Source: a virus (lineage: Duplodnaviria; Heunggongvirae; Uroviricota; Caudoviricetes). Taken from it: a stretch of 43,171 bases of DNA. Positions 5,262 through 30,600 of this stretch are shown here, in pieces. Made by a program: the position numbers and the translations under genes. Numbering within the stretch: position 1 is the stretch's first letter; every line of letters starts with the position of its first letter. Location of the stretch: positions 1-43,171 of IMG/VR virus record IMGVR_UViG_2939121850_000002; one strand, given 5' to 3'. The notes under the pieces were generated by a model, which saw only the letters and a list, made by a program, of their open reading frames with translations, was not told where the DNA came from and ran no database searches.

Positions 5262-5768
5262 TTAAATTGCGTGAATAGCGTGACGAGGGAAGGGGAGAGT
5301 TACTGGTGCAAAGGGTATATCGTCGTCAAAATCCATCGGAGGTTCGTTGTGTTGTGCTGGTGATGATTGCTGCTGTGGCTTCTGTGATTGCCTGCTGGCT
5401 GCTTGTTGTTTGCTGTCGCCAATGCCGCCAAGCATTTGCATCACGCCATTAATTCCGACATGAACCTCGGTTGTGTAACGGTCTTGCCCTGACTGGTCTT
5501 TCCACTTTCTGGTTCTCAGCATTCCCTCGAAATAAATCTGATCACCTTTTTTCACATACTGCCCCACGACCTCAGCCAGTTTCCCGGATACAGCAACACG
5601 ATGCCATTCAGTCAATTCCTTTTGCTCGCCAGTATTTTTATCTCGCCATTGTTCTGACGTGGCTATTGTCAGGTTAGCGAACGCTGTTCCTGATGGTGAG
5701 TATCGAACTTCCGGGTCTTGTCCTACCCGACCAAGGATAATCACCTTATTTATCCCGCGAGAACTCAT
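5262..5768 (-). CDS. ssb: Phage single-stranded DNA-binding protein (SSB) with an atypical 15-aa C-terminal extension
   Basis: OB-fold N-terminus ([20 protein letters not shown]), Gln/Pro-rich linker, MDFDDDIPF acidic tip; the frame then continues [15 protein letters not shown] before the stop. Confidence 0.85.
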
Positions 5769-6232
5769 TTGCTCCACCTCTTGCCAGTTTTTATGTTGCT
5801 TATAATTGATTGAGATACACCCATGTCTTTTGCTATCTTGTACTGACTCTCTTTTTCAGAGAGTCTTTTCCTAATTTCTATAACCTGCCACTCTGTTAAT
5901 TTTGCACCATGATGAGCATGACCTTTCTTGGCTCCACGATGCCTTCCTTTTGCTATCTTGTCGTCCATATTTTCTTGCGCGCTACCTAAAAAGAGATGTT
6001 CAGGATTAACGCAGCATGGGTTATCGCATTTGTGGCAAACCATCTTCCCAGATGGAATGGGGGAGTGATAAAGCTCAAAAGCAACCCGATGAGAAAGCAT
6101 TGTTACGCCAAAGGCTACAAATTTTGTGTATCCTCCTTTGTTTTTTGAATAGGTAGACTCCCAGCATCCTGTTGTTTCATTAACTTTGTAGCTGGACTCG
6201 AATCTTTTAATAATTCCGTCCAAGTGAGACAT
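5765..6232 (-). CDS. HNH homing endonuclease with C-terminal helix-turn-helix
   Basis: [21 protein letters not shown] motif plus a C-terminal HTH-like segment ([23 protein letters not shown]); inserted between the annealing protein gene and ssb. Confidence 0.75.
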
Positions 6233-6940
6233 TTATGCCGCCTGTTTTAGTTCGTTAACTCTGATGTTCATTACCTGAACGCATTTAGCCTGCGCCTCCT
6301 CGTTGCCAGCCATTAATTGCCAGTCACGCTGATAACGCTCGATGAGTTTTTTCTTGTCAGTTTCTGTTGACGCATAATCGCTGAAGTCTTTCAGGATTTG
6401 TTCGCAGTCAACCGATGGAGATTTCTGGTTGGTATTTTCTGGTGATGGTTTGTTATCTGATGCTGGGATTGCCCAGCCCGGCAGCGATGGAGGGAGCCAG
6501 TAAAATCCTGTTCCATCCTTCAGTTTTGCCCTGTGCCACCCCTGCTTTTTATCGAGAGATGTTTGTGCGAAACCTTCCTCAAGGTTATACAGATACCGAC
6601 CGATTCCCCATTGAACGGCAGCGCGCTTCATTGCACCGGAACGACCACCTTTGACGGCTTCTACCTGCGTGTTTTCAGCAGCATCCCATTTGGTTACCCA
6701 TTCGGAATCAATCTTTATTGATATGCCGCATTCAACGCCGCCGTTGTTGGGAATATCGCGGTATTCATTGCGCCATCCTGCTTTGCCGCAAACATCGTCC
6801 AGGCGTTTCATGATTGCCCGGTTCGTTACATAAGCCAGCACCATAGCCCACACCTTGCCATCGCGTGTTTTACCGCTTTGCTGTATTCGCCATTCGATAT
6901 CTTCAGGGCTGAATGGCTCATCGAATTTATTCAAATTCAT
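6233..6940 (-). CDS. Rad52/Rad22-family single-strand annealing protein (Sak-like recombinase)
   Basis: Resembles the Rad52 N-terminal domain (AYVTNRAIMKRLDDVCGKAGW ... AVQWGIGRYLY); occupies the bet/erf position of the early-left operon. Confidence 0.6.
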   Translation of the reverse strand: MNLNKFDEPFSPEDIEWRIQQSGKTRDGKVWAMVLAYVTNRAIMKRLDDVCGKAGWRNEYRDIPNNGGVECGISIKIDSEWVTKWDAAENTQVEAVKGGRSGAMKRAAVQWGIGRYLYNLEEGFAQTSLDKKQGWHRAKLKDGTGFYWLPPSLPGWAIPASDNKPSPENTNQKSPSVDCEQILKDFSDYASTETDKKKLIERYQRDWQLMAGNEEAQAKCVQVMNIRVNELKQAA

Positions 6941-27983: not shown

Positions 27984-29402
27984 ATGCCGATTCAGCAACT
28001 TCCGCTTATGAAAGGTGTCGGCAAAGACTTTCGAAACGCCGACTATATCGACTATCTGCCAGTGAATATGCTGGCTACACCCAAAGAAATCCTCAACAGC
28101 AGCGGATATCTTCGCTCATTCCCGGGCATTGCCAAACGTTCTGATGTGAACGGTGTATCTCGAGGCGTCGAGTACAACATGGCGCAGAATGCTGTCTATC
28201 GTGTGTGTGGCGGCAAGCTCTACAAAGGCGAAAGCGAGGTCGGTGACGTCGCCGGAAGTGGTCGCGTATCAATGGCGCATGGTCGGACATCACAGGCGGT
28301 AGGCGTTAACGGGAAACTGGTCGAGTATCGCTATGATGGCACGGTTAAAACCGTCTCAAACTGGCCTACAGACAGCGGATTCACGCAGTATGAGTTAGGC
28401 TTAGTCCGCGACATTACGCGCTTACGTGGGCGTTATGCGTGGTCAAAAGACGGCACTGATTCATGGTTTATCACTGACCTTGAAGACGAATCACATCCTG
28501 ACCGATACAGCGCACAATATCGGGCAGAATCACAGCCTGACGGCATCATCGGCATAGGTACATGGCGAGACTTCATAGTCTGCTTTGGTTCGTCGACGAT
28601 TGAATATTTCTCCCTGACTGGTGCAACCACTGTTGGTGCTGCTTTGTATGTCGCACAGCCATCGCTGATGGTGCAAAAAGGCATCGCCGGGACTTACTGC
28701 AAAACGCCGTTTGCTGATTCCTATGCTTTCATCAGCAACCCGGCAACTGGTGCGCCGTCTGTGTACATCATCGGCTCCGGTCAGGTATCACCAATCGCCA
28801 GCGCGAGCATTGAGAAAATACTACGCTCCTACACTGCTGATGAACTGGCTGATGGTGTGATGGAATCGCTGCGGTTTGATGCTCATGAGTTGCTGATTAT
28901 CCACCTTCCTCGCCATGTTCTCGTGTACGACGCATCTTCAAGCGCCAATGGTCCGCAATGGTGTGTACTGAAAACAGGCTTGTATGACGATGTGTACCGC
29001 GCTATCGACTTCATTTACGAAGGAAATCAGATAACGTGCGGCGATAAGCTGGAATCCGTGACCGGGAAACTGCAATTCGATATCAGCAGCCAGTACGACA
29101 AGCAGCAGGAACACCTGCTGTTTACTCCACTCTTCAAAGCAGATAACGCCAGATGCTTTGATCTGGAGGTGGAATCATCGACGGGTGTTGCTCAGTACGC
29201 TGACCGCCTTTTTCTCTCTGCAACCACTGACGGCATAAATTACGGTCGTGAGCAGATGATTGAGCAGAATGAACCGTTCGTTTACGACAAACGCGTTTTG
29301 TGGAAGCGAGTCGGGCGCATCAGGAAAAATGTCGGCTTCAAATTGCGCGTTATCACGAAGTCACCTGTCACTCTGTCTGGCTGCTCTATTAGGCTGGAGT
29401 AA
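27984..29402 (+). CDS. Tail-hub protein (P22 gp10-type)
   Basis: 472 aa, same length and position as P22 gp10. Confidence 0.75.
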   Translation: MPIQQLPLMKGVGKDFRNADYIDYLPVNMLATPKEILNSSGYLRSFPGIAKRSDVNGVSRGVEYNMAQNAVYRVCGGKLYKGESEVGDVAGSGRVSMAHGRTSQAVGVNGKLVEYRYDGTVKTVSNWPTDSGFTQYELGLVRDITRLRGRYAWSKDGTDSWFITDLEDESHPDRYSAQYRAESQPDGIIGIGTWRDFIVCFGSSTIEYFSLTGATTVGAALYVAQPSLMVQKGIAGTYCKTPFADSYAFISNPATGAPSVYIIGSGQVSPIASASIEKILRSYTADELADGVMESLRFDAHELLIIHLPRHVLVYDASSSANGPQWCVLKTGLYDDVYRAIDFIYEGNQITCGDKLESVTGKLQFDISSQYDKQQEHLLFTPLFKADNARCFDLEVESSTGVAQYADRLFLSATTDGINYGREQMIEQNEPFVYDKRVLWKRVGRIRKNVGFKLRVITKSPVTLSGCSIRLE

Positions 29403-29404
29403 TA

Positions 29405-29899
29405 ATGATTTCACATGAAGAGTTGAAGCGTCATTTATCATATGACCCAGAAACCGGGGTTTTTACCCGAAAAATATCAAATACAGCGAGCGTCACCGTT
29501 GGTGATGAAGCGGGAACCATGTGCACTGGTTATTTAAGGATAATGGTCTGTGGTAAGAGATACTTAGCGCATAGGCTTGCTTGGTTTTATATGACAGGAA
29601 AACCTGCAAATTGCTTAATAGATCATATTAACGGAGACAGAACGGATAACAGATTTTCAAATTTAAGATTGGCAAATAGATCCCAGAATGGGATGAACAG
29701 GAATATTCAAAGAAATAATAAGTCAGGATATCCGGGTGTCTGTTGGCACAAAAATCTCTGCAAGTGGACTGTTTCTTTCAAGAAAAATAAAAAACAGGTT
29801 CACGTTGGATGCTTCGATGACCTGGACGAAGCTATCTCAGCATCAATGATGGCAAGAGCAGAAAATTTTGGAGAGTTTGCAAGGCAGAGGATTGAGTAA
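29405..29899 (+). CDS. HNH-AP2 homing endonuclease inserted between gp10 and gp26
   Basis: HNH motif ([42 protein letters not shown]) plus AP2-like domain ([10 protein letters not shown]...WTVSF...[14 protein letters not shown]); locally AT-rich. Confidence 0.75.
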
Positions 29900-30600
29900 T
29901 GGTTGATTCATCACTGAATGATCCTGTCGTGGTTCAGGCTACGCGCCTTGATGCTTCAATTTTGCCACGCAATATATTCAGCCAGTCTTACCTGCTGTAT
30001 GTCATAAATCAGGGTGCTGATGTTGGCGCAATTGCCGGGAAGGCAAATCAGGCTGGTCAGGGCGCTTACGATGCCCAGGTAAAAAACGATGAACAGGACG
30101 TCGAACTGGCAGATCACGATGCAAGAATCACCGCAAACACAAAAGCGATAAATCTACTTGAGGTCAGGTTAACAACTGCCGAAGGGAAGATAGTCGTACT
30201 GCGTAGCGATGTTGATTACTTGCTGGATGAGGTTATCGATATTCAGGCGCATCTGGTCACTGTTGACCAAAGACTGGATGGCGTAGAAAGCGATGTATCT
30301 GACATTAAGAGTGATTACGTATCGAAAACCGTAACCGAATCGCAGTCTCTTGCGTCACCGCTGGATGTAAAAACATCATATTCAGTTGATGGAATTCAGG
30401 TTGTTGGAGCAAGAAATACCGGATGGACTGCAGCCACAGGTACGCCACTTCTTGGCTCATTCAACGCTAACCAGTCATACACTGTCGGCACTACGTACAC
30501 GCAATCCGAAGTCGCAGCTCTCGCTACAGGTTTGCAGCAGGCGCGGCAGCGTATTCTGGCGCTTGAAACAGCACTTAGATTACATGGGCTGATTGACTGA
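29899..30600 (+). CDS. Tail needle (P22 gp26-type)
   Basis: N-terminus [29 protein letters not shown] and C-terminus [13 protein letters not shown] match P22 gp26; 233 aa. Confidence 0.85.

Follow-up and report, generated by a model that had tools for sequence, protein, structure and literature searches.

A probable HNH-AP2 homing endonuclease gene at the gene 10/gene 26 junction of a P22-like phage

Introduction

Genes that encode an HNH nuclease joined to an AP2 domain are a recognised family of homing endonuclease genes (HEGs), according to the citation of Magnani et al. 2004 given in PMC10448857, and HEGs cluster beside essential structural genes (PMC10448857, PMC12724721). Members of the HNH-AP2 family (PHROG 99), which include the 'IPA-HNH' genes of ICP1-like phages, have an N-terminal HNH motif and a C-terminal AP2 domain, are 160-280 aa long, and occur as free-standing, variably present genes beside essential structural or replication genes. 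No mapped cleavage site for a close member of this family was found in the literature. The gene described here, located in a window of 43,171 nucleotides (the whole of IMG/VR virus record IMGVR_UViG_2939121850_000002), shares all of these characteristics, with the difference that its junction clade alone has a ..RIE tail captured from gene 10.

Another related enzyme is I-HmuI of Bacillus phage SPO1 (PDB 1u3e), which is encoded in a group I intron, whereas the present gene is free-standing; the two proteins are 22% identical. I-HmuI binds DNA via a C-terminal helix and a helix-turn-helix, in place of which the present protein has an AP2 domain. I-HmuI is a nicking enzyme.

The free-standing HEGs of phage T4 (SegB-G and the HNH enzymes MobA-E; PMC2988022, PMC2790892) also lie between conserved genes, vary in their presence, and spread together with flanking markers. 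Free-standing HEGs spread via intronless homing, and the Mob enzymes of T4 nick DNA (PMC2988022). A stop/start overlap is likewise shared, with UAAUGA at T4 nrdA/mobE and TAATG with gp26 in the present case. The T4 enzymes, however, belong to a virulent myovirus rather than a temperate podovirus, and they cut hundreds to thousands of bp away with long co-conversion, whereas the conserved tract described here extends 26 nt and 3 nt beyond the open reading frame (ORF). In this respect the present gene would resemble an intron-encoded enzyme that cuts at its insertion site, as fixed differences were found only there. A NUMOD4-HNH_3-HTH gene of phage HZ41 occupies the same junction with another architecture, and is accompanied by about 240 nt of diverged gp10 end, compared with 18-26 nt here. 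No description of a HEG at the P22-like 10/26 junction was found in the mainly open-access literature covered.

Results

Location and base composition

The gene was found inside the late operon of a P22-like (Lederbergvirus) phage, between two conserved genes:

27984..29402, + strand: gene 10 (gp10), upstream neighbour, 472 aa; Pfam Phage_stabilise, E = 8.6e-301; phrog_578
29405..29899, + strand: HNH-AP2 ORF, ATG start, 164 aa
29899..30600, + strand: gene 26 (gp26), tail needle, downstream neighbour, 233 aa; phrog_1219, E = 5.9e-113

gp10 is the head closure protein, which stabilises packaged DNA. Other neighbours, assigned with Pfam and PHROGs, were gp4 (P22_Tail-4), gp14 (DUF2824), and a P22-type coat protein. 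A first, sequence-only reading of this DNA had placed the ORF exactly between gp10 and gp26; its coordinates were exact both in the ORF list and in the sequence, although its term 'tail-accessory operon' was loose, the genes concerned being late-operon genes for head completion and the needle. The left junction reads CTG GAG TAA TA ATG and the right junction ATT GAG TAATGG, in which the stop codon of the ORF overlaps the start codon of gp26.

The interval was AT-rich, as that reading had also claimed, with a GC content of 0.38-0.40 over the ORF and 0.47-0.55 in the flanks (300-nt windows). The ORF as a whole had a GC content of 0.396 versus 0.470 for the entire window, and its GC3 was 0.384 versus 0.551 in gp10. 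Its composition is foreign.

The ORF is free-standing, as proposed, with its own start and stop codons. An Rfam scan of positions 28800-30400 revealed no group I or group II intron and no other Rfam family, the sole match being a chance snoRNA hit (E = 0.45). Since gp10 and gp26 are both complete ORFs and no intron was matched, an intron-encoded homing endonuclease was ruled out. Neither a promoter nor a terminator for the gene was detected on the + strand between 27900 and 30700, and RNA folding that might hide its ribosome-binding site, as in T4 HEGs, was no better than in shuffled sequences (z = +0.74).

The encoded protein

The encoded protein is identical to RefSeq WP_021529423.1 ('HNH endonuclease') and contains two recognisable parts:

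29561..29695, + strand: HNH_3 catalytic motif, residues 53-97; D73, H74, N82, N86, N95, N98
29723..29863, + strand: AP2-type DNA-binding domain, residues 107-153; three strands plus a helix

The HNH_3 match was full-length (profile positions 1-46; E = 4.3e-16; 58.7 bits against a cut-off of 24.8), and the protein matched phrog_99 'HNH endonuclease' with E = 4e-70. The AP2 match in Pfam (E = 8.2e-5; 23.3 bits) was under the gathering cut-off of 33.3. An AlphaFold model computed with 64 homologues as input had a pLDDT of 92, the C-terminal tail being its sole low-confidence part. Foldseek searches with this model returned AP2 domains, and the C-terminal part matched the sequence of the Plasmodium AP2 domain 3igm (E = 0.004). 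The HNH and AP2 architecture suggested earlier was thus recovered, the first domain by profile and the sub-threshold second one with the help of structure.

The HNH motif aligned with that of I-HmuI, and the model showed fold similarity to a solved HNH_3/I-HmuI-like member. Among the 64 homologues, D73, H74, N86, and N98 were invariant, and N82 and N95 were at least 90% conserved. The catalytic residues align with D74, H75, N83, N87, and N96 of I-HmuI. In that enzyme, H75 is the general base, and D74 and N96 are metal ligands. Compared with a 78%-identical relative (contig L015), pN was 0.10 and pS 0.62, giving a dN/dS of about 0.08, and the protein is therefore selectively maintained rather than a decaying remnant. 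From its sequence and modelled structure, the ORF is predicted to encode a nuclease of the I-HmuI-like HNH kind, intact and kept so by selection, with an AP2 DNA-binding domain towards its C-terminus.

HEGs commonly degenerate once fixed (PMC10448857), and the C-terminal tail of this protein is a non-native fusion, as might be expected of a decaying, non-functional HEG remnant that has become fixed in a small clade. We regard this as very improbable in view of the full-length ORF with all catalytic residues, the dN/dS of 0.08, the confident predicted structure, and the presence of the identical protein in at least 10 backgrounds, with the element fixed in no clade sampled.

The family to which the protein belongs is large. 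More than 4900 homologues were found among 5.8 billion proteins, most of them 160-280 aa long and many with both Pfam HNH_3 and AP2 domains. Over 3500 phage records hold homologues, often several per genome. No paralogue was found elsewhere in the window.

Presence and absence among relatives

We surveyed 5426 complete Escherichia coli genomes, 917 of which had a matching gp10 region. The gene was carried by 12 of these 917 genomes (1.3%) and by 1 of 32 phage records, vB_EcoP-683R2, which was the sole record of the phage collection with the same insert. The presence/absence polymorphism expected of a mobile gene was therefore found. Fourteen phage records matched both flanks over a span 497 bp shorter, and HEG-less records with matching flanks included Bas106, EC.P3, E212, IME10, HF4s, Huey, and APC_JM3.2, as well as 611R6, CUS-3, phiv205-1, and HK620. 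The sequence-only reading had described genes 10 and 26 as adjacent in relatives, and they proved to be adjacent and overlapping in Sf6, HK620, IME10, CUS-3, and Bas106, as well as in about 900 E. coli prophages, where the span is exactly 497 bp shorter. The gene is an optional insertion, absent from approximately 99% of relatives. The empty junction, (TGC or GCT) CAG ATA AGG ATT GAG TAATGGC, was common to Sf6, HK620, UPF_BP1, and Bas106, and a P22-type junction, CAA ATT CGT CTG GAG TAA AAT ATG, was found in Sf101 and NM-3.

One of the carriers, a P22-like element of E. coli EC20 (NZ_JBXRYH010000004.1), is found not on the chromosome but on a 176.6-kb record described as a circular plasmid (p3); it may be a phage-plasmid, an insertion into a plasmid, or an assembly artefact. 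Several members of the HNH-AP2 family were misannotated, as 'endolysin' in 683R2 and STP03, as 'putative class I holin' in S4lw, and as 'Fis family transcriptional regulator' in Ralstonia phages (GP4 and others); the public records concerned include ON470594.1 (32056-32550), OQ660438.1, and KY176369.1.

HNH proteins can also have other functions: Kala et al. reportedly found in 2014 that they can serve as packaging cofactors. The present gene forms part of a morphogenetic operon, with translational links to both gp10 and gp26, which might suit an accessory role in virion assembly or DNA packaging, of the HK97-like, terminase-associated HNH type, or a role as an AP2 DNA-binding regulator. Such a role is scarcely credible for a gene that some 99% of phages sharing this gp10 and gp26 lack, the type phages Sf6 and HK620 among them, that lies away from terminase and portal, and that has a foreign composition. 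Moreover, the protein is of the HNH_3/I-HmuI type with a sequence-specific DNA-binding domain, unlike the short packaging HNH type. Assignment to the HK97 gp74 type was accordingly rejected, as the gene is not conserved among relatives and has no terminase or portal neighbour.

Structure of the insertion

Compared with the empty site, the insert is 500 nt long (29385-29884) and is located between GGCTGC and CAG(ATA)AGGATTGAGTAATGG. One codon (ATA) is lost, so that the net gain is 497 nt. Three short features define its edges:

29385..29402, + strand: left arm, the recoded last five codons and stop codon of gene 10, from comparison with HEG-less phages
29396..29399, + strand: GGAG Shine-Dalgarno sequence of the HNH-AP2 gene, 5 nt before its ATG, read from the sequence
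29885..29899, + strand: right arm, remnant of the old gene 10 3' end, CAG AGG ATT GAG TAA

The left arm reads TCT ATT AGG CTG GAG TAA (S-I-R-L-E*), compared with CAG ATA AGG ATT GAG TAA (Q-I-R-I-E*) in HEG-less phages, and it is the recoding of the gene 10 end to CTG GAG that provides the GGAG ribosome site. The right arm now encodes the last codons of the inserted gene, Q-R-I-E*. The AGGA Shine-Dalgarno sequence (29888-29891) is kept 7 nt before the gp26 ATG, together with the TAATG overlap; by retaining the old gene 10 end as the RIE* tail of the new protein, the insertion thus leaves gp26 with its AGGA-N7-ATG and its stop/start coupling. Among 64 family members, the ..RIE ending was confined to the three junction residents, the others ending 1-3 residues past a conserved GEFAR or having unrelated tails.

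Between them, the arms make up an imperfect direct repeat of 13 nt (29391-29403 and 29888-29900), whose spacing of 497 equals the indel size. The left arm resembles the P22/Sf101-type junction (CTG GAG TAA AAT ATG), and the right arm the HK620/Sf6 type. Judging from this arrangement, the cassette appears to be built so as to be harmless to the host operon (an 'operon-neutral' design), without a promoter or terminator of its own.

Distant lineages and other HNH genes at these junctions

The next relatives of the protein, P0003 and P0004, showed 78% and 75% amino-acid identity (72-80% at the nucleotide level) and were encoded on metagenomic contigs of more distant P22-like phages, between a Phage_stabilise gene (the gp10 homologue) and a needle-like gene. 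Beyond these two, identity fell to about 50%, homologues outside the junction clade reaching at most 54%. The same arrangement was observed in all three junction lineages: a gp10 end of the form C-S-(I/V)-R-(L/V)-E* (CSIRVE* and CSVRLE* in the distant ones), GGAG-N5-ATG ahead of the HEG (distant contigs L015 and L019), a HEG end of (Q/K)-R-I-E* with AGGA 7 nt before the next ATG, and a TAATG or TGATG stop/start overlap with the next gene.

A second HNH gene was observed at the same gp10/gp26 junction and in the same orientation in HZ41 (2025-2570 of our record L003). It encodes a 181-aa protein with NUMOD4, HNH_3, and HTH domains, its stop codon overlaps the gp26 start, and GGAGG is found 7 nt before the gp26 ATG. 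Outside the HNH motif this protein is unrelated to the HNH-AP2 protein (32% identity over 56 aa, E = 0.025). HZ41-type genes were present in 16 E. coli genomes, with 98-99% identity, before several needle types, and they travel with about 240 nt of a strongly diverged, AT-richer gp10 3' end. Head-completion/needle junctions of P22-like phages are recurrent landing sites for HEGs.

Other HNH genes were noted nearby. In Salmonella phage UPF_BP1, an HNH endonuclease gene (1934-2518 of our record L100) is located between gp4 and gp10, one junction upstream of the site described here, and is partly 86% identical, at the nucleotide level, to the HZ41 junction HEG; gene 10 of this phage is annotated 108 nt shorter. 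A search of the window with the HZ41 protein as query identified a second free-standing HNH gene (5765-6232, - strand), unrelated to the HNH-AP2 gene, which encodes 155 aa with an HNH_3 match (1e-13) and a weak HTH. It abuts genes for a Rad52/Erf-type recombinase (6233-6940) and ssb (5262-5777), and is absent in HK75, ECP1, and HZ41, in which the span is about 464 bp shorter. The slot between recombinase and ssb is filled by different genes in mEp235, epsilon34, and Sf6. The 5765-6232 gene is probably another HEG, inside the recombination module. A paper on epsilon34 describes a different HNH fusion, in the early left operon.

Sequence diversity of the cassette and its flanks

To define the extent of the mobile unit, we compared 12 HEG-carrying sequences (the window, 683R2, six prophages, and four IMG/VR contigs), which delimited the following feature:

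29379..29902, + strand: mobile cassette, 524 bp

Within the cassette, only positions 29734 and 29893 were variable among the 12 sequences, giving three haplotypes with 0-2 differences over 524 nt. Polymorphism restarted at 29378 on the left, 27 nt before the ATG, and at 29903 on the right, in the second codon of gp26. In the same comparison, gp10 had 10 haplotypes with 62-136 differences over 1374 nt (4.5-10%), and gp26 had 9 haplotypes with 5-408 differences over 692 nt. Two of the carriers, L010 and L021, even had two different knob-type needles, of unrelated gp26 types. At the divergence rate of gp10, 24-36 differences from the window would be expected in the cassette, versus the 0-1 observed (Poisson P of 1e-9 to 1e-16). 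WP_021529423.1 was encoded by all six prophages fetched, though their coat, gp4, gp10, gp26, and ejection proteins differed, and an identical protein was also encoded by the four IMG/VR contigs. The signature of a mobile element, claimed at first from the position of the ORF and its composition, is therefore borne out as a near-identical cassette across strongly diverged flanks. These comparisons indicate that the cassette spread horizontally, independently of its flanks, into many phage backgrounds at one junction.

At the right edge, 6 of the 12 carriers had GTT (Val) as codon 2 of gp26 (29902-29904); Ala (GCT or GCG) was encoded there by the remaining 6, as by each of the four HEG-less sequences compared. 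This codon may be a co-conversion marker.

A clonal cassette within diverse flanks would also be expected if ordinary recombination had shuffled flanks around a recent insert. The gene might then be a passive moron, acquired once and carried along by such recombination, with a nuclease that has no part in the spread and is perhaps inactive on phage DNA or directed at some other target. However, diversity restarts no more than 26 nt to the left and 3 nt to the right of the ORF in at least nine independent backgrounds, so that breakpoints would have to cluster at those edges. The nuclease is, moreover, under strong purifying selection with an intact active site, and diverged lineages keep the same site, where a second HEG family is also found. 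We therefore consider this explanation improbable, while noting what speaks for it: P22-like genomes are highly mosaic (of the first 25 kb of the window, its best matches span no more than 36-43%), few genomes carry the insert (12 of 917), and HEG-less genomes offer no homologue with which the cassette could diversify, so that its low diversity alone is no proof of drive. An efficient drive element would be expected to be commoner than 1.3%.

Target site

That the homing target lies at the gp10/gp26 junction, as first proposed, was no given, because free-standing HEGs of T4 often cut hundreds of bp from their own gene (PMC2988022). If the cut site were at a distance, in gene 10 or gene 26, all carriers should share a protective variant there. 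The 12 HEG-carrying sequences were therefore set against four HEG-less ones along gp10 (1419 nt) and gp26 (702 nt); for Sf6 and UPF_BP1, the comparison took in only the last 1103 nt of the former gene and the first 602 nt of the latter. Apart from the insertion, fixed differences between the two groups were found only at 29385, 29386, 29387, 29390, 29394, and 29396, all six within the last 18 nt of gp10. No fixed difference was found in gp26 in this comparison of 12 with four sequences. Across the E. coli genomes, the recoded gene 10 end never occurred apart from the HEG; the standard end was present in all 131 further full-length matches, at 87.5% identity (six mismatches over 48 nt), and neither an 'empty but recoded' site nor a footprint of precise loss was present among them. 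The case against a distant site is thus drawn from full comparison with four HEG-less sequences and, for the last 48 nt, from 131 genomes. Elsewhere in the window, no intact empty-site sequence was found with up to three mismatches.

The six fixed junction bases, the recoding linked to the HEG, and the second HEG at the same place lend indirect support to a target at the junction. On the simplest reading of these sequences, the recognition or cleavage site would span the insertion point and would be destroyed by insertion and recoding. The conserved flanks of 26 nt and 3 nt would fit short co-conversion tracts arising from a cut at the insertion site.

In HK620 and Bas106, the empty site contains an 11-bp palindrome, CTGGC-T-GCCAG, at the equivalent of window positions ~29375-29387, and the change of CAG to TCT destroys it in all HEG-carrying alleles. 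The palindrome was set aside as evidence for the target, since the empty site of Sf6 and UPF_BP1 (CTGGCGCTCAG) does not have it.

Discussion

In our view, the locus is best explained as a free-standing HNH-AP2 homing endonuclease gene that occupies the 10/26 stop/start overlap and has spread by homing, which we consider likely. The protein would be made from the late transcript, late in lytic growth. Given a co-infecting phage or a related prophage in the cell, it would bind the HEG-less junction (approximately CTGGCTGC CAGATAAGGATTGAGTAATGGC) through its AP2 and N-terminal domains, and the HNH centre would nick or cut this empty junction, a candidate region being near GGCTGCCAGATAAGGATTGAGTAATGG. 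Phage or host recombination would then repair the break from the HEG-carrying template, copying in the cassette with very short co-conversion tracts; the window itself encodes a Rad52/Erf-type recombinase and an SSB. With its site split by the insertion and six bases recoded, the HEG-carrying allele would itself be immune.

The same enzyme could mainly serve in competition, cutting related HEG-less phages or prophages so that their markers are excluded, to the advantage of the phage that carries it; the copying of its gene would then be incidental. In Skunavirus, I-HmuI-like HNH genes, when expressed, cause the markers of a sensitive phage to be excluded (PMC12724721), and the seg and mob genes of T4 have the same effect (PMC2988022). 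The phage is temperate, with hosts that frequently harbour related prophages (gp10 region in 917 of 5426 E. coli genomes), and the gene itself belongs to the late operon. Competition of this kind has the same molecular mechanism as homing, so the two cannot be separated by sequence; the low frequency of the gene nevertheless speaks against a large benefit, and as a main role we think it decidedly improbable.

A broader interpretation, which we put forward tentatively and doubt more than we believe, is that different HNH elements compete for the 10/26 overlap of P22-like phages as a landing site, and that two or more of them, unrelated to each other, arrived separately at an operon-neutral cassette. 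Each such cassette would carry a replacement 3' end providing self-immunity and a ribosome site for the HEG, as well as a ribosome site for the downstream gene. Their chief use would be as weapons in contests among related temperate phages and resident prophages, and the cut would fall exactly at the insertion point, as with intron-encoded enzymes, and not at a T4-like distance.

Taken as a probable homing endonuclease gene, the insertion is a well-delimited member of the known HNH-AP2 type, and no general concept is changed by it. Of some interest are the three purposes served by the gene 10 end in its duplicated and recoded form, the intron-like tightness of the conserved flanks, the sharing of one junction by two unrelated HEGs, and the rarity of the gene (1.3%) despite signatures of spread. 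Its identification also corrects the annotation as 'endolysin' in vB_EcoP-683R2.

The locus offers a compact case of a probable free-standing homing endonuclease in genetically tractable temperate phages (P22, Sf6, HK620). Its 524-bp cassette is delimited with unusual precision, the candidate target has been brought down to about 25 bp, and the second, unrelated HEG, which drags along a flank of about 240 nt, provides a built-in comparison. It could be used to study how HEGs enter harmlessly between translationally coupled essential genes, as well as drive and marker exclusion among prophages. For the P22-like phages themselves, the HEG would explain the recombination boundary between the gp10 and needle modules.
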